Shown: piece by piece, positions 18,842 through 35,246 of the stretch
Numbering within the stretch: position 1 is the stretch's first letter
How the letters are laid out: every line of letters starts with the position of its first letter
NCBI GenBank assembly: GCA_030647555.1
Contig: JAUSJG010000004.1
Location: 36,661 to 100,660 of the forward strand
Reading direction: 5' to 3'
DNA: 64,000 nucleotides
Source of the DNA: a bacterium
GTDB lineage: Bacteria; Patescibacteriota; Andersenbacteria; UBA10190; CAIZMI01
Notes under the pieces: model-generated
Told to the model about the DNA's origin: nothing
Databases searched by the model: none
Seen by the model: only the letters and a program-made list of their open reading frames with translations
Position numbers and translations under genes: made by a program

Positions 18842-19801
18842 ATGGACACAAAACAAAAACCGAGCCTTCCCCACCTGGATAAATATATTTTGCATTTGAT
18901 CACACACAACTATTCAAAAGAAACAATTTATAATTACGAAAGAGATTTGCAACTGTTGGAAAATTTTTTGAAAAATGATTTGAAAATCCCCTTCCAAAAA
19001 TTCGATAAGCAAGCATTGGAGCTTTATAAAGCCGAGTTGGTTTCGATTGATCGAAAAACGGCAAATGGAGTTACCGCGGGGGCCTCTACCCTATCGTCTC
19101 GTTCCATCAACAGGGCGCTTTCCGCTTTTCGTTCTTATTTATCATTTTTAATTGCAAATGATATTCCGTGTCCTTTACCGCGTGAAGCAGTCACATTAAT
19201 TCGAATGGAAAGACGTCACGCGCGCGTAGCCGAATTGGAAGAATTGATTCGTTTGATTGAAGCACCGACAACAATGGAAAAAAATAAAGAAATTGCGTTG
19301 CGAAATCGTGCGATACTTGAAACATTGTTTGCAACCGGAATGAGAATATCAGAACTCGTGTCATTAAATTGCGATCAAGTGGACGGAAAAGGAAAGATAT
19401 TTGTCAAAGGAAAAGGGAAAAAAGAAAGATTTGTTTATATGACGCCCAGGGCTACGGAATATGTTAATCGGTATGTGTCATTGCATAAGGACAAAAAAGG
19501 CGCGCTGTTTACCCCCCTGCGTGGCAGAAACGCAAAATCACAGAAAGCGAGAATATCAACAAACTATCTGCAAGATAAAATAAAAAAATATCGGGAGGCA
19601 CTTGGAATTGTTGTGCCAACATCGGCCCATTCCCTAAGACATGGGTTTGCTACTTATCTCGCCGAGTCGGGTGCCAACCCCGCGGCTATTCAAATATTGC
19701 TCGGCCACGAATCTTTGGAAACCACAACGAGATATGTGCATCCCTCCGACAGGTTTGCCGAAACAACGCACAAAAAATTTCACCCGCTGCAAAACATCTA
19801 A
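18842..19801 (+). CDS. tyrosine site-specific recombinase (XerC/XerD-like)
   Basis: Catalytic box HSLRHGFATYLAESGANPAAIQILLGHESLETTTRYVH containing the R..H..R..Y signature. Confidence 0.85.
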   Translation: MDTKQKPSLPHLDKYILHLITHNYSKETIYNYERDLQLLENFLKNDLKIPFQKFDKQALELYKAELVSIDRKTANGVTAGASTLSSRSINRALSAFRSYLSFLIANDIPCPLPREAVTLIRMERRHARVAELEELIRLIEAPTTMEKNKEIALRNRAILETLFATGMRISELVSLNCDQVDGKGKIFVKGKGKKERFVYMTPRATEYVNRYVSLHKDKKGALFTPLRGRNAKSQKARISTNYLQDKIKKYREALGIVVPTSAHSLRHGFATYLAESGANPAAIQILLGHESLETTTRYVHPSDRFAETTHKKFHPLQNI

Positions 19802-20105: not shown

Positions 20106-20576
20106 CTATCCTTTCGTTACGCAAACACTCGGTTCGTAACCCGCATCAATCGCCTCTTGTTCCGTTTTAAAGAAAACCAGGTTTTCTTCTTTAATACGTT
20201 TAACTTCGGCGCAACTTGTAAAATAGTATTTTGTGCCGTTTATCGACGCGGCATATTGGCCATTACCGGTTGTAGTACTATTTGTTGCATTATCGGTAGT
20301 TTCTCCTGCAACGCGTGGAAGCATACTCGCAACGGGAGTGGTTTTGGTCGCCGAGGTCAATACTGCGATATCGGCATCCGAAAACACTGATGGAACTGCG
20401 TTTGTGCCCTGAAAAACGATCGGAGACGCTTTTTTAGTCTCCGATGACCAATAACCCACCAAGTAGCCCAGAATCACCAGAAATACGCCTAAAACCCACA
20501 TAAAAACTTTGTCCTCTCGCTTGGCGGTCAATTTTTGCCATTGGTCAGTTACGCTCATGTTAAACATATGGTACAA
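20106..20576 (-). CDS. membrane-anchored protein with C-terminal Ada-like metal-binding motif
   Basis: One TM segment; C-terminus GTKYYFTSCAEVKRIKEENLVFFKTEQEAIDAGYEPSVC resembles the Ada N-terminal Zn-binding pattern. Confidence 0.35.
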   Translation of the reverse strand: MYHMFNMSVTDQWQKLTAKREDKVFMWVLGVFLVILGYLVGYWSSETKKASPIVFQGTNAVPSVFSDADIAVLTSATKTTPVASMLPRVAGETTDNATNSTTTGNGQYAASINGTKYYFTSCAEVKRIKEENLVFFKTEQEAIDAGYEPSVCVTKG

Positions 20577-20655: not shown

Positions 20656-21915
20656 ATGGAATACGCCTTTTTTCTTGGAAGCAACCCCGGTCTATCGGCC
20701 GTTGAGGTTCACGACTATTTTAAACGCATAAAAATTGTGGCGGATTTTGATTTAACTCGCCTGCCAAAATATTTAATAGTAAAAACCGATGAAACATTGA
20801 AGTGTCAGGCGATTATTGACGGTTTGGGCGGTACGCCGATGATCGCGCAAATAATCGGGGAATTGCCGGATTTGTCCGCCGAAACAATTATTGAAAAAAC
20901 CGGTTTGGAGAGTCGATTTTCGGAAGGACAAAAACCAATTTTCTCAATTTCTTTTGAAACACTTGGTACTTCCCTGCCCGCCTCAAAAAGTCCGCGTGAA
21001 ATTAGAACATTGGGGATAGAAATAAAAAAACTATTGAATAAAAAAGGTTGTCGTGTGGTGGTTCCGCAAATTGGAACTTCATTGAGCACCGCGCAATTAT
21101 TTAATTCAGGCGTGCCGTTTAAGGCGGTTGGTATCCACATTATTGAGCTTGAAAGTGGTCGCTATGTCGCGATGATCGTTACCGCCGTGCAAGATATTGA
21201 TTTTTACACGCGCCGTGATCGAGAGCGTCCGGAAGCCGATCCGGGCAAAGGAATGTTGCCTGTTAAACTTGCGCAAATTTTTATTAATTTTACACAAGCG
21301 GAAATCGGTTCAAAAATATATGATCCGTTTTGTGGCGCGGGTACGATTGTCGCCGAGGCCATGTTACAAGGTTTTAATGTAATAGCTACAGATATTTCTC
21401 TAAGACAAGTTGAACGCACAAAAATTAATACCGATTGGTTAAAAAACACATTTCCTAATTTAGTTGATCCGAGAAAAAACATTGTCGTTATGGCGCAAGA
21501 TATCGAAAAACCGTTACGTGAGATCGAAAACAATTCGATTGACGCGATTGCTTCCGAGGGCTGGCTAGGGCCGGCTACCAACCACGAGTTATCGGCCTTC
21601 GAGATTGAAAATGTTTTCGTGAGAACCCAACAACTGCTTTATGCCCTGCTTGCCAATGTCAGTAGCGCGCTCAAAAGTGGGGCCACAGTGGTTGTGGCAC
21701 TCCCCGCTTTTCGCGTCGATAAACGCATCGTAAGAGCGCCGTTTATGCAAGAAGAATTGCGAAAATTTTTACCAAAGGGCTACAAAGTTGAAAGCCTTGT
21801 CCCGGAAGGTTGGACAAATCCTGCCTTTCGCGACGCCGGTCAAGGAATGATGTTGTATGGTCGCCCAGACGCGGTGATTCTTAGGGATATTGTGCGAATA
21901 AGAAAAACAAATTAG
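20656..21915 (+). CDS. class I SAM-dependent RNA methyltransferase (UPF0020/Trm11-like)
   Basis: Motif I KIYDPFCGAGTIVAEA; N-terminal THUMP-like region. Confidence 0.55.
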   Translation: MEYAFFLGSNPGLSAVEVHDYFKRIKIVADFDLTRLPKYLIVKTDETLKCQAIIDGLGGTPMIAQIIGELPDLSAETIIEKTGLESRFSEGQKPIFSISFETLGTSLPASKSPREIRTLGIEIKKLLNKKGCRVVVPQIGTSLSTAQLFNSGVPFKAVGIHIIELESGRYVAMIVTAVQDIDFYTRRDRERPEADPGKGMLPVKLAQIFINFTQAEIGSKIYDPFCGAGTIVAEAMLQGFNVIATDISLRQVERTKINTDWLKNTFPNLVDPRKNIVVMAQDIEKPLREIENNSIDAIASEGWLGPATNHELSAFEIENVFVRTQQLLYALLANVSSALKSGATVVVALPAFRVDKRIVRAPFMQEELRKFLPKGYKVESLVPEGWTNPAFRDAGQGMMLYGRPDAVILRDIVRIRKTN

Positions 21916-22598: not shown

Positions 22599-22985
22599 AT
22601 GGCTTGGGTGTATGTGGAACGGGAAAACTTTGTTCGGATGTGCGAAAAGGCGGGCATTTCAATCGTAGTACGAACGGCGATTAAAACTTGGGCGCCGAGC
22701 GTAAGCAACCTATATCAGTTGGCTCGACAAAAACTGATTTATCGTTCTCCTAAAAATCGTTATGAAATTTGGGCGGCGGGAATCCCAAATCCGGACAGTA
22801 ATAGAGGCAAAAGTGGCGGTTATCGCGTCGTCTATTTTTTTGATTTAACCGAAAAAACAATCAATCTGGACTTCATAGAGGAAAGAAAAGAACTCGGCTT
22901 CAAAAACGAAGGCCAAGCAAAAAAGAATCGCTACACCGATTACGTCAACCAACTGAAAATTTCTCTAAAAAAATTGGATGTTTAG
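22599..22985 (+). CDS. RelE/HigB (Gp49-like) family toxin-like protein
   Basis: GKSGGYRVVYFFDLTEKTINLDFIEERKE resembles the G.GYRV.Y core of HigB/Gp49-family toxins; lies 9 bp downstream of the Panacea gene. Confidence 0.5.
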   Translation: MAWVYVERENFVRMCEKAGISIVVRTAIKTWAPSVSNLYQLARQKLIYRSPKNRYEIWAAGIPNPDSNRGKSGGYRVVYFFDLTEKTINLDFIEERKELGFKNEGQAKKNRYTDYVNQLKISLKKLDV

Positions 22986-23117
22986 CGTCCCTGCTCCTCA
23001 AAAGCTGTTAGCAGTTCATTCATATCCAGTTCTCGTCCCTCTTTTTCCGCCAAAGCCATAGCCCGACAAATAGCGCAGTCGTCGCAAGGCTCAAGGCCGG
23101 CTTCGGAAGCAACCTGT

Positions 23118-26100
23118 TTACTTTCCTTTTTTATCTTTTTTGACATGGGTTTTTGTTACTTTCCTTTTCTTCGGTTTTGACGTCCAGTATTTGCCGGGGT
23201 TTTTATCTCTTAGTTTTTTTATAATATCCTGTGCGTCTTTATCGGTGGCCACGTATTGCTTGATAATCTCCACCAGTTTATCGCTTTCGTGAAGTTCCAA
23301 ATCTCTCGGAAAAGAAAAGAATATTTTTACGGCTTCCATAAACTTATCTTTTCCAAAATTGTCGTGCAACAGTTCCAATATCCTCGAATGATACTGAGCC
23401 GGGTACCAATAAACATTTGCCAAGTTGCCGATTTCCGCTTGTTTTTCATAAAATCCTTTTTCTACTTCAAAACACTTGATCAGCAATTGATACCACTTTT
23501 GCGCATCTTTTTGAGGCTTACTAAATTCCCGCTCCATGGTTTGATAAATGACATTAAAAATATTGCGAGCATAAATGTCAGAAAGCAATTCAAAATATTC
23601 CAAAGCAAGCTCTGTGTTTTTCGGCATTTCTTCGGGCGATCCTTCCCGCAAAGCGTGTTCGACGGATGACGCGAATCTGAAACAACTGTCAGGATCTTCT
23701 TTTTGCATTTCCTTTATGGTTTCAATCAGGATTGTTTTGAACTTTCTCTGATCATATTTCTCCGGTCCGAGATCGTCATATAAACCAGGCATGCCAAACC
23801 GCCAATTAACATATTTATTCTTTCTAAACTCTGCGTAGTAAATAAACAACGGCGCAGCTTCTTTTTTGATGTCAGCCGACAGGTTTGCTATGGCGGTCAC
23901 GAACCTTAAAGAATCCTTCTCATTCAATGCCCTGATGGGGTCAAAAACGTGCAACACGCTCTTGATTAACGATTTTTGAACCGGCGGTGGCCACGCAATG
24001 AATTTATCCAGCAAATCAAATGCAACACTTTCAATTTCTTTTGACATTCGTAGTGCCCTTTCCCTGTCGTCGTTCAAAAACAGAAGCTCTCTGTTTTCCG
24101 GCAACACGGTCAGCCGGTTGCGAGCCAGTTGGCCAAGTGGTAGGGTGGCCATTTGTATTACGTAATAATTCGGGTCGTTAACCAACTTCTTCGTCAGTTC
24201 AATCACTTCGGCCACTTGTCCTCGCCCCGAAAGTACGGCGCATTTCGTCAGCACCCACCCGCACCAACCGCGAACCGAAGCAATTGCGTTCGATTCCTTA
24301 CCTTCCAGAATACTTTTGTGTTCACTGTATTTATCTTCCGGATCGCGCGGATCTTTGCCGAGCGAATACGGGTCTGGGTCGTCGATAAAAATACGAATAA
24401 TTTTTAATGCCTCGACTATTTTTTTCTTGGTCGCCAGCCTTGCCGCGAATTGAACGAAGGCCTCGCGACAACTGGCGTTAGTCAGCCACTTGGATATTTC
24501 AGCTACATTGTCGCCGTGTTTTTTTAAGAACGGAACGACAACCTCTTTGTAAATTTTCAGTAGCAATTCTTCGTCATCGGAGTCATCGTTTCCCAAGTGA
24601 TTAAACAAAGCGTAGGAATAAATAATTTGCTGATCTTCACTGGGTTTTACCTCGTTTTCCAACAAACGAATTATCGACAAGCCGGCGACATAATCTTTTC
24701 TGATTATTTCATTCAACAGAGAGGCTACGGTATAAGCGCCAAAATGATCACTTTTTTCTTTTTTGATATAGTCGCTTGCAATAAAGGTTGTAAACAATTC
24801 AACGGCAAGTTTCAAATCAGTTTCCAGCAGTGTCTTAATGCCTGACACAACTTCGAAATCAAACATAAAACGCTCGTAATACTTTGGGTTAGAGTACCAT
24901 TTTCGCATCGTTTGTTTGGCTTGCAGAAAACCATTTTTGGCCAAATCGGTCACAATCCGTTCAACAAAGGGATTAACCGGAATGCCGTATTTTTTAACAG
25001 TCAGTTCAACCAACTTCCATTTTTTGCCGTCGGACAGAGCAATGTTGCCGGCAGACCAATAGATCAGTTCGGATTTGTGCGGAATGCCTTTTTTTAAAAG
25101 AATAAATTCTTTTAAAATCTCAAAAGCCTCGTTGGAAACATTTTCGTCCGTGTTCACATATCGGTTTATGACTATTTCACAAACCGCGCGGTTTAAAAAA
25201 TCAGGCTTGTACTTGTTTACCTCGTGTGGCATTGAGATACAACGCTCTTTGATAAATTGCCAACCCTTGGCTTTATCCTTTTCGTAATATTGATTAATGG
25301 CCGGTGTAAGAATGAAAGACACAAAATGCCGTTCATTAATGGCATATTGGCCGGAATCATAAGAAATTCCGCCACCCATATATTCCCACCCTTTGAAGTT
25401 CATTTTGCTTTTGAATTTTTCATAATATTTTTGGTATTGGGCACTCGCCATTTTTACAAATTCGTCAAACCGGCCTTCGAAATCTTCATTTAGCCATTCA
25501 CGCAATATCTCGTAAACGTCGCGGGGGGCGTGGTGGATAAATTCTCCTTCGTCTTGCGTGATATTAAACGCGGAGGCGATTAAATCAATAACTTTTTGTT
25601 TCAGGTTGCCTTCCGTGTCGCGCTCGTATATTTTTCGCGCAAGCTTGCAAATTTCTTCTTTTTCCCATTCGCCGTGTTCGTTTCCGGTATCTTTGAGATA
25701 GAAAAAATCATTTTCATTAAACATAATCAGGTCTTTCGCTATAATGAACGCGTCGTCCAGATATTCTGCACCATCCTCCCCTTCGATAATCTTTTTAACT
25801 ATCCTCACAATATCCACGTTAAAATAATCGGTTCGATAAAAACCACGAATCATTTTTGTGTATTTTTTAATATAGCTCAATATATACTTTCGATTTTTGT
25901 CTGTATGTAAATTGTTTTCGAAAATATAAAAGATTCCGAAGTTAAATGCATAGATCCTATTTAATTTCCAAACAGGATCCCAGTTTTTTAGAACCAACTC
26001 GTTATGTTTATTTTCCAGCCTATCTTTCGCAAACTTTAATCGTTCATAATCGGTTGAAAATGCAGAAAGCTCTTTTGGCACTTGCCATATACCATGGTTC

Positions 26101-26840
26101 GGATTACTTAATGCTCTTTCGAGTTCCCAGAATTGTTGCTCCCTTTTGCTTAGTTGCTCGTTGTAATAAACACTATTTTGCCTTGTTTCAACAGCAATGT
26201 TATTTATTTCTTTCAGAATATCTATTCGGGAATATGTGTCACCGACAGCCGACCCGATATAAATTTTTTGCACAAGGATGCTATCTGAGATTCTTTTAAT
26301 GTCTTCTTCCGATAACCAAAAGTTTAACAGATCGGTAAAAAGGGAATAAATTGTTTTTTGTATAAATCCAGATTTTATATGCCAAAACCTAACCCTAGGA
26401 AGTAAACTAATCATTGCCGCGGAATACCCTTTTTCCTTAAATTGATCTTTTACACCATCCCAATAACGAGAATTTTCAACGCGGGAAATTAATTCTGTAT
26501 TAACATTAGTGCAAACGATCAGTATCTCGTCGGCGTCTGCGACTTCTTTGCTTGCTACCACCTTAGTCAGAAACTCTTTTAAATGTGCGTAATTAAAAGG
26601 CTTTTTTCTATCTTTTGATTCACAAATTATTCTTTTACCATCATTAAAAACTAGATTGAAATCTTCAAACCCCTGGGCTTCAAGGTGAATATGTGAAAAA
26701 TTTGGATCGCGTAAAAACTGCAGAAATAACGACATGGCAGCCCATGCCTGTGTATTAATTCCTTTATAGTTGCTTTGTCCTGCTCTGCCCATAAGATTAT
26801 TTAAACTCAAGGTAAAAATGAATTCCATTGTCCGACCCAA
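23118..26840 (-). CDS. 1240-aa alpha-helical protein with N-terminal PD-(D/E)xK / Cap4(DUF4297)-like nuclease-like domain; defence-island component
   Basis: N-terminus GRAGQSNYKGINTQAWAAMSLFLQFL ... EDFNLVF ... ICESKDRKK fits a D...E.K nuclease signature; no Walker A anywhere; Lys-rich C-terminal tail; start overlaps the upstream gene by 44 bp. Confidence 0.5.
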   Translation of the reverse strand: MGRTMEFIFTLSLNNLMGRAGQSNYKGINTQAWAAMSLFLQFLRDPNFSHIHLEAQGFEDFNLVFNDGKRIICESKDRKKPFNYAHLKEFLTKVVASKEVADADEILIVCTNVNTELISRVENSRYWDGVKDQFKEKGYSAAMISLLPRVRFWHIKSGFIQKTIYSLFTDLLNFWLSEEDIKRISDSILVQKIYIGSAVGDTYSRIDILKEINNIAVETRQNSVYYNEQLSKREQQFWELERALSNPNHGIWQVPKELSAFSTDYERLKFAKDRLENKHNELVLKNWDPVWKLNRIYAFNFGIFYIFENNLHTDKNRKYILSYIKKYTKMIRGFYRTDYFNVDIVRIVKKIIEGEDGAEYLDDAFIIAKDLIMFNENDFFYLKDTGNEHGEWEKEEICKLARKIYERDTEGNLKQKVIDLIASAFNITQDEGEFIHHAPRDVYEILREWLNEDFEGRFDEFVKMASAQYQKYYEKFKSKMNFKGWEYMGGGISYDSGQYAINERHFVSFILTPAINQYYEKDKAKGWQFIKERCISMPHEVNKYKPDFLNRAVCEIVINRYVNTDENVSNEAFEILKEFILLKKGIPHKSELIYWSAGNIALSDGKKWKLVELTVKKYGIPVNPFVERIVTDLAKNGFLQAKQTMRKWYSNPKYYERFMFDFEVVSGIKTLLETDLKLAVELFTTFIASDYIKKEKSDHFGAYTVASLLNEIIRKDYVAGLSIIRLLENEVKPSEDQQIIYSYALFNHLGNDDSDDEELLLKIYKEVVVPFLKKHGDNVAEISKWLTNASCREAFVQFAARLATKKKIVEALKIIRIFIDDPDPYSLGKDPRDPEDKYSEHKSILEGKESNAIASVRGWCGWVLTKCAVLSGRGQVAEVIELTKKLVNDPNYYVIQMATLPLGQLARNRLTVLPENRELLFLNDDRERALRMSKEIESVAFDLLDKFIAWPPPVQKSLIKSVLHVFDPIRALNEKDSLRFVTAIANLSADIKKEAAPLFIYYAEFRKNKYVNWRFGMPGLYDDLGPEKYDQRKFKTILIETIKEMQKEDPDSCFRFASSVEHALREGSPEEMPKNTELALEYFELLSDIYARNIFNVIYQTMEREFSKPQKDAQKWYQLLIKCFEVEKGFYEKQAEIGNLANVYWYPAQYHSRILELLHDNFGKDKFMEAVKIFFSFPRDLELHESDKLVEIIKQYVATDKDAQDIIKKLRDKNPGKYWTSKPKKRKVTKTHVKKDKKGK

Positions 26841-27885
26841 AATCCGATGCGGTCAATTCTCTTATTGGCAAACTGGCTAAAAGTAAATGCCTGGGTGGAC
26901 ATACAAAGGAAACGATTCCCTGCGGATGCGAAAGACAGAAATCTTTTATACTGGCAAATAAGCAACGTCCAGCTGGGTCTATTTTTTTGAACAGATTAAT
27001 TAAATCAGCTTTTTTTCCATCAACTATTTTCGAATATTGCTTTTTATTGAAAATTTTACTCTCTCCGATTGACGTTTTTTCTACAGTTTCAAGTTCGGGA
27101 GATGTCCCCGTGCTAAGAAAATCATTCTTTGTTGGAGTAATAACATATGGATAAGTATTAATTGAAAGCGCAACCACCTCATTTCTAGAAAAAGTATACT
27201 GTTGAGTATTTATGCCAAAAACAAAGTTGGGAGGGGTGCCTGGGTTAGTAAGACGAATTTCCTCAATTTTTATATGTAAAACATCGTCAACTAATAAACT
27301 GTGTTTTGCCTCCCTCTCTCTTACATAAGAACGTCTATGTAGATAACCATCGACCGATTCTTTTTCTAATTCTTTTTGGATTACTGATATTATTTCATTG
27401 TGTTTAGTTTTATCACTATTTGATGCATTGGGAAAAATCTCGTTTGCATCGATAATATTTAAATGAGGGATTTTATCCTTCAAGAAATCAAAATCCCATA
27501 TACTAATTTTGAAAGGAAATTTGTTTATAACATTTAAACTTGTTAACCTTTCGGAAAATATTGTATTACTTTTATATCTTTTATGAGGGATAAAAATACA
27601 ATATACATCCGGGTAATAGCTACTCCCCATAGACATTAGCTCTAAAATCTTATCGCTAAAATCAGATAGCTCTACTTCTAAAACATCGCTATAATTATGA
27701 TTGTGTTTTTGGCGATTGAGATCTTTACATTCGAATTTCCAAAAATATTCCTTTCCTTGTATTTTAAAATTAGCATAGGCATCATACCCATTCTGTAGTC
27801 CTGAACGATTAGGCCAATATAAGGGCGTGAAAAGGTTCCTCATTATATTCGCCAAGTTATTTTCTAATTGTTGACCCTTGCTCAT
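26797..27885 (-). CDS. restriction-endonuclease-like protein (PD-(D/E)xK-like N-terminus)
   Basis: GYDAYANFKIQGKEYFWKFECKDL fits a D..(E)xK pattern; its ATG overlaps the MTase stop by 4 bp. Confidence 0.4.
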   Translation of the reverse strand: MSKGQQLENNLANIMRNLFTPLYWPNRSGLQNGYDAYANFKIQGKEYFWKFECKDLNRQKHNHNYSDVLEVELSDFSDKILELMSMGSSYYPDVYCIFIPHKRYKSNTIFSERLTSLNVINKFPFKISIWDFDFLKDKIPHLNIIDANEIFPNASNSDKTKHNEIISVIQKELEKESVDGYLHRRSYVREREAKHSLLVDDVLHIKIEEIRLTNPGTPPNFVFGINTQQYTFSRNEVVALSINTYPYVITPTKNDFLSTGTSPELETVEKTSIGESKIFNKKQYSKIVDGKKADLINLFKKIDPAGRCLFASIKDFCLSHPQGIVSFVCPPRHLLLASLPIRELTASDFGSDNGIHFYLEFK

Positions 27886-30800
27886 ATATTTACTTTTTCA
27901 TTGCCCTCAACAATTTTTATTTCCTCATTTGTTAAGTCGTAGAGACTATACACCAACGCATCTATTTGGCGTTCAAAGTCCTGGATCTTAGCTTGTTTTT
28001 CGGCGTTTACTAAATAGTCGTTAGATTGAATCACCTTTTGTATATTGTCTTCGAGAGCAATAAAATCAAGTTGAATATTATTCTCAAGTACTGCCTGCGG
28101 AATGGGTATTTGCTGGATGTAAAAGTCATACAAGTGCATTGTTCTTATTGCCCGTGCGTAGATGAAATTGTATGCATACCAATTTACAAAGCTGGAATTA
28201 AGATAAGAAAGCCAAAATTTTGACGACAATTTATCATCTAACGCAAAAGACATCAGCGTGTTAGTGATAATTATTCCTTCGGCATCATAGCAAGCTGTTA
28301 ACTTTATATGTGGCTTTGGATTATCAATATGTGCAACTAAAACTTGCGCTATAACTTTTGGTTTTAAAAATTTTTTGGCTGAATCCCAATTCAATTTTGA
28401 TTTATTTTTTAACCACCTATTAGATTTTATTTTCCATCGAGCGATATCTATGCCCTTTAAAAGTTTATAATCGGTTTGTTTATCAGAGAAAAAGTCTGTT
28501 CCAATAGCAAGACCCAATCTCCCCTTAACAAGGTGTTCGTTTGTTTTTGCGTCCTGAATTTTTTGCCAAAGCGTTTTAGAGATAAGCAATTTATAGATTT
28601 GGGCTGTACCATTTTCCGCAAATATTTCGGCCTTATGTCCTGATGCAAACTCAAAAACAACATCGTTCTTATTCAAATAAGAACATCTCACTTTATCATT
28701 AGAGCTGTTTTTCACTAAACCAAAAGCATTAGCCTCAAGTAACACTTCGTCAAACGCCTTACTTGAGTCAAGCAAAAACCTAAGATTATATTTCAACCAA
28801 TACTCTTTCCTGAATCCATCCCACGCATCACCATACAGTGATTTCTTGGGGATTATGAAAGTTAAAATACCGTTCGGTCTAACTAAATTGTTAAATGATT
28901 TTTTACAAAATAATTCAGCACTGTCACCACTACTAAACTCAATATTTTCTATTTTTCGATAATATGTTTTTTGTTCTGAAGTCAAAACATTTCTAAAACC
29001 ATACGGCGGATTTCCGATTACCACGTCAAATCCTTCTTTAATGCCGAACATAAACAACGGATCGAAAAATTCGGCACTGGAGTCGGAATTAAACGGATCG
29101 TAGGACAATAATTGTTCCTGTCGTTTTGATTTTTTGGTTTTTATTATTGACCCTTTGCCATTACCTTTTAATAAATCCGCAAAATCTTGCTTCATTTTTT
29201 CCTTAATATTCCGACTGCTGGAGGTGAAATAACGATCCCTAATCGTCCGCATTTTTTCTTCCAGCTTATCGTGATCCCAAATAGAAGTTTGGCCGTTGGG
29301 CGCCAAGGGAATTAAGCTGTTGGCGCAAACAAATTTAAATTCCAAATTTGGCAACGGATCAATACCCATATTCTGCCTATCCGGCAAAATCGGCTCGTCT
29401 ACCACCAGTGAAAGCCAAGCGCGCAGGCGCGATATTTCCACCGCCATCGGCTCGATATCCACGCCGAAAATGTTTTTCTCAATAATTCCCAGTTTTGTTT
29501 TGTAACTATCAAACCGACTTTCAATGCGATCATAAACCGTGGAGATTAATTGCATCATCCCAATTGGAAATGCTCCGGAGCCACAAGCAGGATCGAGAAT
29601 TTTCATTTCATCCAACGCGGAGACCAATTTTGCTTTATAGGGAGCGATGTCGCGTCGATCATTTTTTGAGTCAAACTCGTGCTCTTTTTTATCTAACAAT
29701 AATGACAATAATTTTTCTTTGCGTTCATCTTCGCCCAGTTTTTCTGACAAAAACGCTCGCAAGCTTTCTTTGCACATATATTCCACAATTTCACGCGGTG
29801 TATAGAAAGCGCCTTTCGCTTTGCGCGCCTGCTTGCCGGTTTCGTCCGTAATTTCTGCGAGCAAGTTTTCAAAAATCCTGCCCAACATTTCCGGATCAAT
29901 TGCCACTTGCTGAAAATCGCTGGTAGATTCGTCGGTGGTGAAATGGTAGCCATTTAAGAAGGCATAGAACCGCTGGAAAAAATCGGCCGGAAAAGTGAGT
30001 AGAGGGTCGCCATTGAGATCAGAATCCTTCGGTTCAAATAAACCGCCGTTCAGAAATGGAGTTTTAGCGTCTGTTGGAAAAAGGGTTTTCGCGCCCTCCT
30101 TTTTTCCAAACAGCGTTGCGTCAATTTTGTCCGCGTTTTTTTCGCGCTCGTCCATTGGCGTATTAAGCGTGCGGAAAAATAGCAATTCGAGTTTTGAATG
30201 ATAATAATTGGTGGCATCCGTACTAGAAGCGTCAAAATAGCCATACTGCTCCGAAATTATCCCCTTTTTGCGGAGAAACCAGCAGAAAATCAATCGGCCA
30301 ATTAAGCGCGTGGCAAATTGCCGGCGATGATCGCCTGCCAGGATATTTTTGTTTTCCAAATGTTGGAGTAGCTCGGTAAAAAAGCGTGAGATTTCTTTGT
30401 AGAATTCTTTATTAAGCGGACGAATATCGAAGCTATCCCATAAAATGTGATGGACTTGCGCCTTATTGGTAAAATCAAAACTCTGGAGCCAGTGGTTAAA
30501 AATTGTTTTTTGGGTGTTGGATAGTTTTCCATCCAGTTCTAACGTGCGGATTTTATAGTTGTTGCTTAAAACAATAATCAGCTTGTCCGCTTTATCGGAT
30601 ACCACAAAATCAATCCCGACATTTTTATTCGCGTAAATTTTTTCATCCTCAAAATTCGGGGTTAAGGTAACCAGATTGGCAATTACTTTTTTTGACGGTT
30701 TTTGCGCCCAAAATAACTTAAAATCAATGCCGTAATCCTTCTCTGTTTCCAGTGCGTAACTGGCTTTTCGATCCGCGAATTCCGGCGCGTTTTTCACCCA

Positions 30801-30989
30801 GCCCGGGTGCGCTTTCAGTTGTTTAAATTGACGTAATGTTGGTGTTGCAGAGACCACACCGAGCATAGACACAATCTCTTTTGCCACGGAAAACACATCG
30901 TTTAGATTTCCGCTCTTCTTGGCGCTCTGAAGGGCGTCGTCAATTTTGGAAAAGACTTCGTCGGCGTGATTATTTATTTTCACGGGCAT
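27882..30989 (-). CDS. gamma-class N6-adenine DNA methyltransferase (Eco57I/MmeI/PglX-like), 1035 aa
   Basis: GAFYTPREIV (motif X), ILDPACGSGAFP (motif I, SAM-binding), VVIGNPPYG (motif IV); large C-terminal region is probably the target-recognition domain. Confidence 0.85.
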   Translation of the reverse strand: MPVKINNHADEVFSKIDDALQSAKKSGNLNDVFSVAKEIVSMLGVVSATPTLRQFKQLKAHPGWVKNAPEFADRKASYALETEKDYGIDFKLFWAQKPSKKVIANLVTLTPNFEDEKIYANKNVGIDFVVSDKADKLIIVLSNNYKIRTLELDGKLSNTQKTIFNHWLQSFDFTNKAQVHHILWDSFDIRPLNKEFYKEISRFFTELLQHLENKNILAGDHRRQFATRLIGRLIFCWFLRKKGIISEQYGYFDASSTDATNYYHSKLELLFFRTLNTPMDEREKNADKIDATLFGKKEGAKTLFPTDAKTPFLNGGLFEPKDSDLNGDPLLTFPADFFQRFYAFLNGYHFTTDESTSDFQQVAIDPEMLGRIFENLLAEITDETGKQARKAKGAFYTPREIVEYMCKESLRAFLSEKLGEDERKEKLLSLLLDKKEHEFDSKNDRRDIAPYKAKLVSALDEMKILDPACGSGAFPIGMMQLISTVYDRIESRFDSYKTKLGIIEKNIFGVDIEPMAVEISRLRAWLSLVVDEPILPDRQNMGIDPLPNLEFKFVCANSLIPLAPNGQTSIWDHDKLEEKMRTIRDRYFTSSSRNIKEKMKQDFADLLKGNGKGSIIKTKKSKRQEQLLSYDPFNSDSSAEFFDPLFMFGIKEGFDVVIGNPPYGFRNVLTSEQKTYYRKIENIEFSSGDSAELFCKKSFNNLVRPNGILTFIIPKKSLYGDAWDGFRKEYWLKYNLRFLLDSSKAFDEVLLEANAFGLVKNSSNDKVRCSYLNKNDVVFEFASGHKAEIFAENGTAQIYKLLISKTLWQKIQDAKTNEHLVKGRLGLAIGTDFFSDKQTDYKLLKGIDIARWKIKSNRWLKNKSKLNWDSAKKFLKPKVIAQVLVAHIDNPKPHIKLTACYDAEGIIITNTLMSFALDDKLSSKFWLSYLNSSFVNWYAYNFIYARAIRTMHLYDFYIQQIPIPQAVLENNIQLDFIALEDNIQKVIQSNDYLVNAEKQAKIQDFERQIDALVYSLYDLTNEEIKIVEGNEKVNI

Positions 30990-33900
30990 ATAACAATAAT
31001 GATTGGGCTTGATTAGGAATAATAATCGTCTCTTCTTCGGCTACAGCCTCGCGAGCCAGGGCTATCAGTTCTTTAAGGTTATCATTATACGGCTTTTGGT
31101 TTCGGTGCGCCTTCGCGACATCTCTCACAAGATTATCCATTTTACTGTTGAGCAAGTGATTGTGGGTGTTAAAAGCATTACCCACCAGATCTATTTCCTC
31201 CAGCGTGTAATTATGGTCGTGCATAATCCGCAATATCATCGCTTTTTGCCCCGTCGGCAATGACGCTTCTTCGTTGCCGATCGAGAAATTTGTCGGTATG
31301 TCGGCCACCTCTTTCAGTTTAATCTTATCAAGAGTTAGCTTATCGACATCCCTGCGATTGTCGGTTTCATTGGTTCTAATTAATCGTAAAGCTTCCAGGA
31401 CCGGCATAGCGCTACGCTCCTCGCCGTTTCGGTTCATTTTAATGAATTGAGGTATCAGTTTTTCATGGTCTTTGTAAAGTTCGCTTAATGCTAAAACCTC
31501 CGGCAATAATTCATCCTTTTTCGTTGGTAAAACAGCCCACTTGCCTTTTGGGATGTTATAAATTGACTGCTTGTATTCTTCTGTTTTTTCCGTGTCATTC
31601 GCAAACTGTTTCAAATCGTGCACAAAGTCGTCTTCGGCAAGTAAAAAGTCACCTGCTTCTTCAGCGAGCTGATAAGCCCTAAGCCTCTTTTGTTCGTCGT
31701 CGCTGTAAATCTCAATAAACTCCATCGGGTTAGCTGTTTCCCCCAGCACCGACTGATCAATTCCGATTGTGCTATTAATTAATTCAATTTTTCCCTCCAA
31801 TCTTTTTACCAGTCTTAAATATGCCTCTAGTTTTTTATCGGGGCTCATATTAAAAATAATTATTTTCGCGTATTCCGATCCAAGCCGGTTCACGCGCCCG
31901 TTGCGTTGTATCATACGCACGGGATTCCAGTGCAGGTCATAATTAATAATTGTTCCGCAGTCTTGCAGATTTTGCCCTTCAGAGAGAATATCTGTTGAAA
32001 ACAAATAACGCAATTCACCCTTGTTTTTATCGCATTGCTTGTAATGTTTGGCAATTGGCGCGAAACGTCCCGCAAGGTCTGTCGCCTCGTCACGATTTTT
32101 TCCAGTAAGAAAGCCTGCGTTTGTTTCATTCACCAAACCACCCGACGCGACTTGTATGTTTGCTTTTAAATATTCCACAGTATCAGAAAAGTAAGAAAAT
32201 ACCAGTACTTTTTCCCCCGCCGGTTTTGTTTTGTTCAGCTCCACTAAAACATTTGCCAACTTGGCCAATTTTGTGTCGCCTTGTTTAAACAACAAAAGAC
32301 AATCTGAAATAATCTTTATAATTTCTTTTTCCATGGTTATGTCTTTCTTAAATGCCTCCACGTTGTATTTGTTTTCATCTACCTCGTCTTGAACATGCTT
32401 TTCCAAAAGTTCGGCATCCACATCACTCAAATCTTCCTCGTCTTCATCACGCATCGCGTCACACAGAACATCAAGATCTTTCATTGCTAATATTTTTTCT
32501 TGCTTAAGCCCCTTTTCAAACATAACGAGATTGTTTTCGTATTTTTTCAATGATTTTTCGATGGCGTACACTGAAGATTCCATGCGTTTTAAAAAGATAG
32601 TGCGAAAAATGCCGTAAATGCCACGTTGTTGTTGGAGCGCTTTGCTTTGTTCGGCAGGCAAACGCATTTCTTTTATTTGTTCTTTGGTTTTTCCATAATA
32701 TCTTGTTTGATAAATACGCCACCGATACGGAATAAAGCCCAACATCAGAATCATTTGATATACAAAATAAACGGGAGATTCATTAGTCAGATCAGCTTCT
32801 GAATAAACTCGCTCCGCCAGTTCCAGTTGATCCAAAGGATGCATAAGCATACTGCATTTTTCCACGATATCCTCGGGTTTCCTGCTGTAAACAGACAACA
32901 AATCAATCTGTTGTGACTTGTTCTCCATAATTTTTTTGGTCATTTCCGGTGGCAAATGATAATTGGCGTTTTGGGGATCTGCCTTGGGAAATTCGTATTC
33001 TTTTCCGTTTATAATTAGTTTTCCGTATTCTTTTTCAATACCCTGACGCGTTCGACGCACAACAAGGGTGCGAATAATCGGAGCCATGATTTGCTTAATT
33101 TCTGCATAATCCGGCATTTCCTCTTTATTAAGTTTGCGATTGATTTTATTTTGCAAATCAGCTACGGCCTGAAAAAAATCTTTCATCTCGCTTTGTCCGG
33201 TTTTCCGATCAACAGTCATCACCTTATCCACAACATCCCCTCTGCCTCTTGTGCCAAGTATCAGCTGTCTACTTAAGTCTTGAATTTCGTTATTGATTGG
33301 TGTGGCGGTTAATAAAAGCACATCAGCTTTTTTGTTATTTCTAATCCAATTTAATAACGCATTGTATCTGGTACCGCCGGTTTTTCTTAGGTTATGTGAT
33401 TCATCAACAACAAACAACGACACAGAAGCCAAATCATCAAGTTTTTGCTCTTCTTTCATTGCGTTAATATTTTGAAGGATCACGGGTTTCAGATGCATCA
33501 CACCGGAGTTTATTAATTCTGCTTTCCATTGTTCCTCCAATGACTTCGGACATACCACGATTACCCGCTTCTTACCCTCCTCACTATCAAGATAATGTTT
33601 CATAACTTCGATTGCCGTGTATGTTTTTCCCAACCCCACCGAATCGGAAAGCATCGCTACGTGATATTTTTCCAGCTTTCTAAGTAACTGTTGAACATTT
33701 CTTTTTTGGAATTCCATTAACTCATAACTTTTATCCGTACTTTCCTTGAGAGCAACATCCTCTAGTTCGTCTTTGTAGAGTTCGTAAAGGGTTTTTATGT
33801 ATGTTTCATATGGACTGAATAATACGTCGCCAACAGGAGACATTTCCAGAATCTCAATAAATTTTCCGTTCCAATTTTCCGTTGTCGGGTCATTCCATAA

Positions 33901-34452
33901 TTGATCAAACCAAAACAAGTGCCCCACTTCTTGTTGCTCCGATTGCGGTTGAAAGGTTACAATCCGCGAGTCCTCTTCGATATCATTTAATTCCGTATTC
34001 ACCGTTAGACCATTTTTGGTAAAATTTGACGAGCCGATTATGCCAACCGCTTCATTTGATTTATAATCGCCAAAAACATAACACTTGGCGTGTAAAAATG
34101 TTTTTCGATAGACTTTAACTTCCAGTTTTCCCGCGCTGATTAATGCTTTTATTTGAATTACAACTTCCTTGAGTTTTTTGTCTTGAATAATATTTTCTAA
34201 ATCGTGAAAAATATCCTTGTCTGGAAAATCCGGTTCTGGGGCACTTATTGCGTGTCGAGGAATAAGGGGTTCGCGTCCTATCAATAATCGGATTTTATCC
34301 AAATTTTTTATTTTATCAATAAGCAGAGCGGTGCCGGGCAAATCCCAATAGCCTGTCGCTATTGATACTTGTTTGAAGTTTGGCATTATCTCGCAAATTA
34401 CATCTGCGAGTTTGTGTCTGCTATTGTCGATAATTTGGGGTATTTTAGGCAT
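30970..34452 (-). CDS. PLD-family nuclease domain fused to SNF2/SF2 helicase, 1160 aa
   Basis: N-terminal HKD motif (HAKCYVFGD ... GSSNFTKNG); helicase motifs I DSVGLGKTYTA, II VVDESHNLR, III LLLTATPINN, VI QRNGRVNRLGS. Confidence 0.85.
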   Translation of the reverse strand: MPKIPQIIDNSRHKLADVICEIMPNFKQVSIATGYWDLPGTALLIDKIKNLDKIRLLIGREPLIPRHAISAPEPDFPDKDIFHDLENIIQDKKLKEVVIQIKALISAGKLEVKVYRKTFLHAKCYVFGDYKSNEAVGIIGSSNFTKNGLTVNTELNDIEEDSRIVTFQPQSEQQEVGHLFWFDQLWNDPTTENWNGKFIEILEMSPVGDVLFSPYETYIKTLYELYKDELEDVALKESTDKSYELMEFQKRNVQQLLRKLEKYHVAMLSDSVGLGKTYTAIEVMKHYLDSEEGKKRVIVVCPKSLEEQWKAELINSGVMHLKPVILQNINAMKEEQKLDDLASVSLFVVDESHNLRKTGGTRYNALLNWIRNNKKADVLLLTATPINNEIQDLSRQLILGTRGRGDVVDKVMTVDRKTGQSEMKDFFQAVADLQNKINRKLNKEEMPDYAEIKQIMAPIIRTLVVRRTRQGIEKEYGKLIINGKEYEFPKADPQNANYHLPPEMTKKIMENKSQQIDLLSVYSRKPEDIVEKCSMLMHPLDQLELAERVYSEADLTNESPVYFVYQMILMLGFIPYRWRIYQTRYYGKTKEQIKEMRLPAEQSKALQQQRGIYGIFRTIFLKRMESSVYAIEKSLKKYENNLVMFEKGLKQEKILAMKDLDVLCDAMRDEDEEDLSDVDAELLEKHVQDEVDENKYNVEAFKKDITMEKEIIKIISDCLLLFKQGDTKLAKLANVLVELNKTKPAGEKVLVFSYFSDTVEYLKANIQVASGGLVNETNAGFLTGKNRDEATDLAGRFAPIAKHYKQCDKNKGELRYLFSTDILSEGQNLQDCGTIINYDLHWNPVRMIQRNGRVNRLGSEYAKIIIFNMSPDKKLEAYLRLVKRLEGKIELINSTIGIDQSVLGETANPMEFIEIYSDDEQKRLRAYQLAEEAGDFLLAEDDFVHDLKQFANDTEKTEEYKQSIYNIPKGKWAVLPTKKDELLPEVLALSELYKDHEKLIPQFIKMNRNGEERSAMPVLEALRLIRTNETDNRRDVDKLTLDKIKLKEVADIPTNFSIGNEEASLPTGQKAMILRIMHDHNYTLEEIDLVGNAFNTHNHLLNSKMDNLVRDVAKAHRNQKPYNDNLKELIALAREAVAEEETIIIPNQAQSLLLYARENK

Positions 34453-34559
34453 TGATAATCACTAATTCTCAAAAAATTATTTCAAAGACTATGCAATTAA
34501 ATTACTCTCATTGGACGGTATAATCAACCATTCTGTATGTAGTATTTGGCATATTGGAG

Positions 34560-34799
34560 CAACAGACACCTCCTGTATCAAAGTCTTGTCTTGTTCTTTG
34601 ACAACAACCGGTGGTTTTTGTTACATTTCCAACTGAAGCATGCAATAATACCTTAAGAGGCGCTGGGGTGTTCCCTCGGAGATTCCGGGGCTTAAGCTCC
34701 AGATAACCACCTCTCAAGACGCTGCTTCTACTAGAAGATGATAAATTTGGATCGGGGCGTCCCCGGTCGGCAAGGGGTCCCGCAAGGGACTTTTTGTTA
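34560..34799 (+). ncRNA. candidate small structured RNA ending in an intrinsic terminator (identity unresolved)
   Basis: 515-bp gene-free interval with GC-rich paired segments (GGGGCGUCCCCGG ...); perfect terminator GGUCCC-GCAA-GGGAC + UUUUUGUU at 34776-34799. Confidence 0.3.
34775..34799 (+). terminator. rho-independent terminator
   Basis: ggtccc gcaa gggac followed by tttttgtt. Confidence 0.6.
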
Positions 34800-34967
34800 T
34801 TATGGGAATACTTTGTATCCATATCCATCAACCTTTCCGTTGTTGGAAATGGCTACTTCTGATACCCATATACTACATACCAAATACAAGATACTCCGTG
34901 CGCTGGACAAAATTCTTATTATCGTTTAATCTGCTTAAGTCAATTAAAGTAATCATTTCTCACCCAT

Positions 34968-35246
34968 ATGGCACATAAAAAAGCTGGAGGTTCAACCGCG
35001 CTGGGTCGCGATTCGCAAGGGCAACGCCTTGGCGTTAAAATTTATGGCGGTTCCAAGGTTACAGCCGGGGCGATTATTGTTCGTCAACGCGGATCAGGCT
35101 ATCGCGCCGGTACCAATGTAAAAATCGGCAAAGACGATACGCTTTATGCGCGCGTAGCCGGAATTGTGAAGTTTCAACAAAAGAAATTGCGGTCATTCCA
35201 CGGCAAGACTATCATTCGAAGTCTAGTACACGTGTTGAGCAAATAA
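34968..35246 (+). CDS. rpmA: 50S ribosomal protein L27
   Basis: [28 protein letters not shown] ... canonical L27. Confidence 0.9.

Follow-up and report, generated by a model that had tools for sequence, protein, structure and literature searches.

A PLD nuclease-Snf2 motor protein encoded with an Eco57I/MmeI-type methyltransferase: a predicted two-gene restriction-modification cassette in an Andersenbacteria contig

Introduction

What is the role of a protein that joins a phospholipase D (PLD)-like nuclease domain of the HKD type to a complete SNF2 ATPase, and whose gene runs directly into that of an adenine DNA methyltransferase (MTase)? The question is raised by the gene at 30970-34452 in a 64,000-nt stretch of a genome of the GTDB lineage Andersenbacteria (GenBank assembly GCA_030647555.1, contig JAUSJG010000004.1, positions 36,661 to 100,660 of the forward strand), hereafter the window, to whose numbering all coordinates refer. 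A preliminary description of the window had read the product of this gene, here called HKD-SNF2, as an ATP-dependent restriction component of unusual build, and had compared it with the Type IV enzyme SauUSI and with DISARM. Our analysis indicates that HKD-SNF2 and the MTase encoded at 27882-30989 probably form a two-subunit, ATP-dependent restriction-modification (R-M) system. The basis of this reading is the observed domain content, the conservation of catalytic residues, the pairing of the two genes with overlapping frames, the loss of the nuclease motif from the MTase and the hypervariability of its target-recognition domain (TRD).

Results

HKD-SNF2 couples a conserved single-HKD nuclease site to a Snf2-type motor

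The gene and the parts of its product are as follows.

30970..34452, minus strand: HKD(PLD)-SNF2 protein, 1160 aa, the predicted restriction (nuclease-motor) subunit (intact open reading frame (ORF), Pfam, PADLOC, full-length homologues)
33958..34371, minus strand: N-terminal PLD/HKD nuclease domain, aa 28-165 (PLDc_2, E 6e-9; RE_NgoFVII above cutoff)
34018..34092, minus strand: single HKD motif, H121-A-K123 ... G140-S-S-N143-F-T145 (motif scan)
33277..33726, minus strand: SNF2 ATPase lobe 1, aa 243-392 (Pfam), with motifs I (GLGKT, 273), II (DESH, 350) and III (TATP, 382)
31879..32259, minus strand: SNF2 ATPase lobe 2 (Helicase_C), aa 732-858, with motifs V (LSEGQN, 823) and VI (QRNGRVNR, 849)
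30973..31746, minus strand: C-terminal extension, aa ~903-1160, alpha+beta, matching no family

The motif scan placed HAKCYVF at aa 121 and GSSNFT at aa 140 of this single uninterrupted frame, where the preliminary description had seen an HKD motif, and Pfam profiles identified the surrounding region as PLD-like, with PLDc_2 at 36.3 bits (cutoff 27) and RE_NgoFVII (aa 107-153) at 24.1 bits, barely over its cutoff of 23.8. The complete set of SNF2 motifs that had been claimed was likewise recovered, including DLHWNP at aa 839 in addition to those listed, and Pfam assigned aa 243-392 to SNF2-rel_dom/ResIII/DEAD. Scanning for H-x-K..GSxN gave one HKD motif per chain. A single motif per chain implies, as had been anticipated, an active site built from two chains, that is, a dimer; dimeric active sites formed by single-HKD chains are established for Nuc, BfiI and SauUSI.

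To assess conservation, we aligned 30 HKD-SNF2 sequences at 48-60% identity. H121, K123, G140, S141, S142, N143, N152 and E154 were invariant (n = 30), the helicase motifs were likewise invariant, and identity in the bin covering aa 101-150 was 0.73, on par with the ATPase motifs, no part of the protein being more conserved than the nuclease domain. Because the HKD residues are invariant and the HKD block is conserved to the same degree as the ATPase motifs, the nuclease site appears to be under purifying selection.

The family is large. All of the 120 best database homologues measured ~1145-1190 aa, showed 48-59% identity across 96-100% of the query and carried the same Pfam set, and an exhaustive search of 50%-identity representatives returned 1195 clusters at E ≤ 1e-30, most of them matching from residue ~3. 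The cassette is spread over bacteria and archaea, plasmids and prophage-like contigs. A scan of viral contigs yielded only distant relatives (≤33% identity), most of them without an HKD domain; the HKD region was covered in 14, and a downstream MTase homologue was present in 7 of these 14. The best PADLOC match of HKD-SNF2 was PDLC01075 'HKD+Snf2' (E 6.7e-49, aa 6-909), the model of a cluster, C3a139, named in 2018 (PMC6546367). The restriction role suggested in the preliminary description is plausible as a predicted function, but the build is not unusual, since it belongs to a large family described in 2018 and again in 2023. The possibility that the fusion is a frameshift artefact of two separate genes, also raised there, was ruled out by the intact ORF and by more than 100 full-length homologues of the same architecture.

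Compared with PDB sequences, a profile of the family matched true Swi2/Snf2 ATPases (RapA, ISWI, INO80, DDM1, CHD1 and others), and a Foldseek search with an AlphaFold2 model of HKD-SNF2 (predicted local distance difference test score (pLDDT) 76, predicted template modelling score (pTM) 0.62) returned E. coli RapA as the best match (~1138 columns, the whole chain), followed by SWR1, Chd1, SRCAP and ISWI. SauUSI was not among the top profile or fold matches. When the N-terminal 230 aa alone were compared with the PDB, the sole match was SauUSI (7clg), at a marginal E of 0.012 and aligning the HxK..GSSN block; with an N-terminal profile this match was not reproduced, and insignificant matches to R.NgoAVII and BfiI appeared instead. 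Judged by sequence and model, the nuclease is therefore best described as a restriction-type PLD domain and the motor as a bona fide Snf2 ATPase. Given the Snf2 motor and the absence of SauUSI from the fold and profile lists, the resemblance to SauUSI noted in the preliminary description appears to be one of domain order and not of family, and both kinds of search speak against homology of the motor to that of SauUSI.

The C-terminal extension that had been described exists, but beyond Helicase_C and the brace region its length is closer to 260-300 aa than to ~350 aa. Even at a lenient Pfam threshold (E ≤ 5) it matched no family and no reader domain. In the AlphaFold2 model it consists of helices, a 4-strand sheet and a helical bundle; its conservation (0.28-0.40) lies below that of the rest of HKD-SNF2, and distant homologues align only as far as aa ~911-985. 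We regard it as a candidate partner- or DNA-contact domain.

The partner MTase has lost the nuclease signature of its relatives

Two features describe the partner.

27882..30989, minus strand: Eco57I/MmeI-type gamma-class N6-adenine DNA MTase with TRD, 1035 aa, the predicted modification and specificity subunit (Pfam, PADLOC)
28101..28466, minus strand: TaqI_C target-recognition domain of the MTase, aa 842-963 (TaqI_C, E 6.9e-10)

Besides TaqI_C, Pfam detected Eco57I (E 4.5e-27), N6_Mtase and MmeI_Mtase in this protein, and the PADLOC model REase_MTase_IIG matched it at 5e-129. Similarity to BREX PglX was weaker, and the PglX structure 8c45 was the nearest solved structure by sequence. The window protein was then aligned with 20 partner MTases from related loci (n = 21). 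Motif I (DPACGSG, 466-472) and motif IV (NPPY, 660-663) were invariant. Across aa 1-300, the 21 homologues contained no conserved acidic or Lys residue and no PD-(D/E)xK signature, the invariant positions being limited to aromatic, aliphatic, Arg, Thr, Asn or Gly residues, and a lenient Pfam scan of the N-terminus (E ≤ 5) returned nothing useful. For a lactococcal orthologue, the restriction domain was reported to be absent (PMC6098607). The MTase thus appears to have lost its own nuclease, and the lack of a conserved D..ExK in its N-terminal 300 aa leaves the HKD site as the only conserved predicted nuclease of the cassette. The least conserved part of the MTase was aa 750-1000, around TaqI_C (0.09-0.22, vs 0.4-0.77 in the catalytic core), which is consistent with what is expected of a specificity module.

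The two genes are paired across related loci

The HKD-SNF2 stop overlaps the MTase start by 20 nt (30970-30989), and an identical 20-nt overlap was found in four relatives at 46-59% identity (loci L001, L003, L006 and L054), suggesting conserved translational coupling. Gene neighbourhoods were collected from exact-protein look-ups, annotated plasmids and 80 metagenomic loci. A same-strand downstream MTase homologue was present in all 21 distinct loci whose HKD-SNF2 reached 35% identity or more and whose downstream sequence was long enough, which bears out the earlier remark that the protein is encoded with its own adenine MTase. The MTase was directly adjacent in 19 of the 21, mostly with overlapping frames, the only exceptions being two loci with a small inserted gene of 130 aa or 229 aa (L020:4061-4453 and L027:13493-14182). 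Small helix-turn-helix (HTH) controller-like genes, typical of R-M systems, lay directly upstream in L001, L006, L011, L017 and L027; none was found upstream of the window copy. The gene 3' of the MTase varied between related loci (DUF3644, Tle1-like, DUF2130, NgoFVII-like PLD). A pooled Pfam scan of 72 neighbour proteins of related loci gave Eco57I and TaqI_C as the commonest domains and contained no DUF499, DUF3780 or DUF1156. A promoter/terminator scan of 22600-35000 gave counts at chance level (33 vs 32.4 expected and 15 vs 12.1), and no operon boundaries were therefore drawn from it.

The pairing extends to plasmids and to distant relatives. On plasmids of Lactococcus and Lactiplantibacillus, the homologues share 36-37% identity with HKD-SNF2 across 90% of its length, and the MTase gene comes directly downstream. 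On L. cremoris pJM1F (L009, 5425-10230), a stand-alone TaqI_C cassette in inverted orientation and an Mpi-family invertase come after the MTase ortholog. This arrangement points to phase-variable specificity, consistent with a report of a Cj0031-like MTase with a PLD(cd09178)-SNF coding sequence beside invertible Type IIG genes (Milman et al. 2023, PMC9881135), in which an invertible TRD cassette is also described; at the window copy, no invertible TRD cassette was found. Distant HKD-SNF2 genes (27-30% identity) also neighbour MTases of the Eco57I or Type_ISP_C type. At L045:1038-12887, two tandem HKD-SNF2 paralogues precede a 1603-aa protein with N6_Mtase, Type_ISP_C and GmrSD_N domains, which from its domain content would be a variant pairing of PLD-SNF2 with a Type ISP-style MTase/TRD bearing an extra GmrSD-like domain. 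An Acinetobacter gerneri plasmid (L098, 2857-19397) carries a distant helicase relative, matching from query aa 139, in the array helicase, DUF4391, DNA methyltransferase, DEAD/DEAH helicase; TnsA/TnsB/TniB/TniQ genes directly precede this array, which looks like the cargo of a Tn7-like transposon. Among the neighbours of distant relatives, DUF4391 recurs.

A second two-gene module abuts the cassette

Two further genes follow the MTase gene on the same strand.

26797..27885, minus strand: p362, 362 aa, first gene of a separate two-gene module, its start overlapping the MTase stop by 4 nt
23118..26828, minus strand: p1240, 1236 aa, Cap4/HamA/LmuA-like PD-(D/E)xK nuclease (N-terminal) and a HEAT/ARM-like alpha-solenoid of ~1000 aa

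With p362 and p1240 overlapping by ~32 nt, all four genes are co-oriented and no intergenic gap separates them. No match to p362 was found in Pfam (including E ≤ 5), PADLOC, NCBIfam or PHROGs, and a lenient Pfam scan (E ≤ 5) of the p1240 N-terminus gave nothing useful. The p1240 family comprises ~130 clusters, mostly from Patescibacteria and one from Legionella, with E50, D56 and E70-x-K72 invariant; over its other ~1000 aa, p1240 resembles HEAT/ARM repeat proteins. In four of five other contexts, p1240 homologues have an upstream neighbour of 260-365 aa that varies (Schlafen/AlbA_2, Cap4-like, unknown); in the fifth, in Legionella (L091), a phage-type integrase lies directly upstream. In L092 and L093, a p1240 homologue is found at the 3' end of an R-M-like operon, and those of L091, L094 and L096 have many R-M genes around them (Type III Mod/Res, N6_N4 MTases, Mrr-helicase, Bsp6I). 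Homologues of p362 and p1240 were found in none of 90 HKD-SNF2 loci, and in L096 a gene 71% identical to p362 lies directly upstream of a p1240 homologue at a locus without HKD-SNF2. On these two grounds we treat p362-p1240 as a separate module abutting the cassette, an undescribed candidate for a role in defence as far as its sequence indicates.

The four minus-strand genes sit between a tyrosine integrase gene and the L27 and CTP synthase genes. Further features of this region are listed below.

18842-19801, plus strand: tyrosine integrase
20106-20576, minus strand: Ada Zn-binding-domain protein
20656-21915, plus strand: UPF0020/N6_N4-like methyltransferase, 419 aa
22017-22589, plus strand: SocA/Panacea antitoxin-domain protein
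34634-34729, plus strand: DUF3800-V RNA (Rfam RF02964, 78.5 bits vs a gathering score of 37.4, full length)
34968-35246, plus strand: L27 gene

This arrangement is consistent with a small integrated chromosomal defence island beside housekeeping genes. A different island, in L092, also starts right after CTP synthase. The DUF3800-V RNA lies in the gap between HKD-SNF2 and L27, on the strand of L27, and is overlapped by a 107-aa ORF with a TTG start (34508-34831, minus strand) that is probably not a gene.

Discussion

A model for the two-gene cassette

The R-M system that we propose would amount to a split Type ISP or Type III-like design with a PLD nuclease. In it, the variable TaqI_C domain of the MTase would read a short, probably asymmetric, DNA sequence, and the MTase would label host DNA as self by methylating adenine at such sites, probably in only one of the strands. 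We infer a physical interaction between the two proteins, through which HKD-SNF2 would be recruited or licensed by the MTase at unmodified sites; the Swi2/Snf2 motor, driven by ATP, would then move along or pull in double-stranded DNA. Cutting would fall to a PLD active site to which two HKD domains contribute, either in a constitutive dimer, as in MtsD, the effector of the MANTIS system and an experimental precedent for this model, or when two complexes meet. To judge from Type III, Type ISP and MANTIS, two unmodified sites in inverted orientation may be the preferred target, and this preference would spare freshly replicated hemimethylated host DNA. Hemimethylation of an asymmetric site is itself suggested by analogy with these three systems and with MmeI-type enzymes.

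Several points weigh against this proposal. The model borrows hemimethylation, asymmetric recognition and site-orientation dependence from other systems by analogy, and we know of no proven nucleolytic role for the SNF2 proteins of BREX type 3 and DISARM. In the searchable literature, which excludes subscription-only papers and REBASE, we found annotation-level remarks on the two-gene cassette and no experimental study of it. MANTIS methylation needs the AAA+ loader MtsA together with MtsB, and MANTIS cleavage resisted reconstitution in vitro; given these requirements, a system of two genes may be incomplete or may work differently. At this particular locus, p362 and p1240 could also contribute.

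Alternative readings

The closest experimental precedent for the effector is MtsD (MANTIS, 2026), which combines an N-terminal HKD/PLD domain with an SF2 ATPase and has the catalytic residue H122. MtsD is dimeric, with a single PLD site, and restriction depends on it. In MANTIS, swapping the TRD of the MTase switches the specificity of methylation and restriction alike, and restriction is strongest where unmodified sites occur as inverted pairs. HKD-SNF2 has the same domain order, its catalytic His lies at nearly the same position (H121), it partially matches the NCBIfam model 'phospholipase D-like anti-phage protein' and PADLOC PLD_Helicase, and MTase-directed specificity and defence against unmodified DNA are MANTIS features that the proposed cassette would share. 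That HKD-SNF2 is the MtsD of a MANTIS (Gao_RL, BREX-related type 2) system with a DUF499 loader, DUF3780 and a DUF1156 MTase is nevertheless scarcely credible. The NCBIfam model NF042964 scored 152 bits where its cutoff is 1100, and the PADLOC match (4e-27) covers the C-lobe only; no DUF499 AAA+ ATPase, DUF3780 or DUF1156-type MTase was found among the operon and flanking proteins, elsewhere in the window or in the related loci examined; a Walker A motif occurs in none of the MTase, p362 and p1240; and the window holds no other ORF of at least 700 aa that could be the loader, p1240 folding as a Cap4-like nuclease with HEAT repeats. With an MTase of the Eco57I/MmeI type bearing a TaqI_C TRD, the SNF2 motor is left as the only ATPase, and the lack of the three families and of a second ATPase led us to reject membership of MANTIS. 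It is very unlikely, too, that HKD-SNF2 acts alone on modified foreign DNA as a SauUSI-like Type IV enzyme, the MTase being functionally unrelated or otherwise employed. In SauUSI, too, a single-HKD PLD nuclease at the N-terminus precedes an ATPase motor, and the active form is a dimer; this enzyme gave the only PDB sequence match of the isolated HKD domain, and the C-terminal extension of HKD-SNF2, having no family, could be a reader domain. However, HKD-SNF2 and the MTase co-occur strictly and in overlapping frames, whereas SauUSI targets modified cytosines, has no MTase partner and has a motor that is not Snf2-type; the marginal match was not reproduced by profile and SauUSI is missing from the top fold matches; and an m6A (N6-methyladenine) writer beside a modification-dependent nuclease would risk self-attack unless the specificities differ.

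Resemblances to BREX and DISARM raise the reading that the SNF2 motor acts on phage DNA by blocking or remodelling and not by degradation, the HKD domain being regulatory or acting on another phosphodiester. The MTase resembles PglX and DrmMI, the C-terminal helicase half matches the DrmD and BrxH models, and BREX does not clearly cleave DNA. Against such an exclusion mechanism, which we hold to be unlikely, stand the invariance of the full HKD set (H, K, GSxN, N..E), the matches of the domain to nuclease-type PLD families such as RE_NgoFVII, and the missing BREX and DISARM core genes. Class 1 DISARM shares the inventory of SNF2 helicase, PLD nuclease and large Eco57I-like MTase, with partial DrmD and DrmMI matches here, but its PLD protein (DrmC) is separate and not fused to SNF2, and DrmA and DrmB/DUF1998 are missing here, neither DrmA nor DrmB having a PADLOC or Pfam match in p362, p1240 or the flanks. 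Scores far below the NCBIfam cutoffs (DrmD NF038317, 150.7 bits vs 610; NF038318, 87.8 vs 950) led us to reject DISARM, and the likeness drawn in the preliminary description is a loose one. A small but appreciable chance remains with a four-component system, in which p1240, the Cap4-like/HEAT protein, and its partner p362 would serve HKD-SNF2 and the MTase as a sensor or back-up effector. The four genes lie on one strand with the 4-nt and ~32-nt overlaps and no gap, p1240 homologues end R-M-like operons or stand in R-M-rich surroundings, and papers on BREX-related systems have proposed that auxiliary nucleases beside them act as a 'back-up'. The absence of p362 and p1240 from the 90 HKD-SNF2 loci and their pairing in L096 led us to reject most of this reading, and each related locus carries a different gene behind the MTase.

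Significance

The two-subunit R-M cassette has a PLD-motor effector like that of MANTIS or SauUSI and only a single-chain MTase as partner, so it is the simplest system at hand for asking how an MTase licenses a Snf2-type motor nuclease and how hemimethylating systems avoid self-attack; its value is that of a minimal relative of MANTIS. For annotation, the pairing implies that 'Type IIG' MTases of this kind would be neither solitary nor self-cutting, but the Mod-like half of an ATP-dependent system. The window copy itself is ordinary, one more of a known family in a small defence island, and a further member of a widespread kind noted before without biochemistry.

Comparison with known systems

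Among the classical systems, Type III enzymes (EcoP15I, Mod2Res) share the two-gene Mod/Res logic, in which a specificity MTase loads an SF2 helicase-nuclease; their asymmetric sites are hemimethylated and inverted site pairs are needed. They differ in having a beta-class N6_N4 Mod and a Res with a C-terminal PD-(D/E)xK domain and a helicase of another clade. Here, Pfam matched none of the Type III families, the MTase is gamma-class, and the helicase carries an N-terminal HKD domain and no PD-(D/E)xK. Type IIG/IIL enzymes (MmeI, Eco57I) have an MTase and TRD of the same family as the one described here, but their own N-terminal PD-(D/E)xK nuclease and no use of ATP, whereas a separate, ATP-dependent nuclease is predicted for the cassette. 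In Type ISP enzymes (LlaGI, LlaBIII), one polypeptide unites an Mrr-like PD-(D/E)xK nuclease with a non-Snf2 SF2 motor, a gamma-class MTase and a TRD; here there are two proteins, a PLD nuclease, a Swi2/Snf2 motor and no match to Mrr. It is a real possibility, which we put forward tentatively and at somewhat less than even chances, that the cassette represents a distinct, unnamed class of ATP-dependent R-M systems, a 'split Type ISP' that joins a PLD nuclease to a chromatin-remodeller-type motor and achieves cleavage directed by the MTase and coupled to translocation with no AAA+ loader of the kind on which the related MANTIS system depends, in the window perhaps linked to p362-p1240 as a back-up effector.

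The nearest counterparts are the unnamed PLD-SNF2 operons with a Type IIG-like MTase, which have the same two-gene architecture and the same MTase without a restriction domain. The same gene pair appears as orf33/orf34 on a plasmid of Lactococcus lactis FM03P (2018, PMC6098607), and the features of these operons recur in the window: an N-terminal single HKD with a complete SNF2, and an adjacent, co-oriented Eco57I/MmeI-type MTase with TaqI_C and no nuclease signature. The earlier operons were reported as annotations, with neither a name nor experiments; the copy described here differs in lying in a chromosomal island of an uncultivated bacterium.

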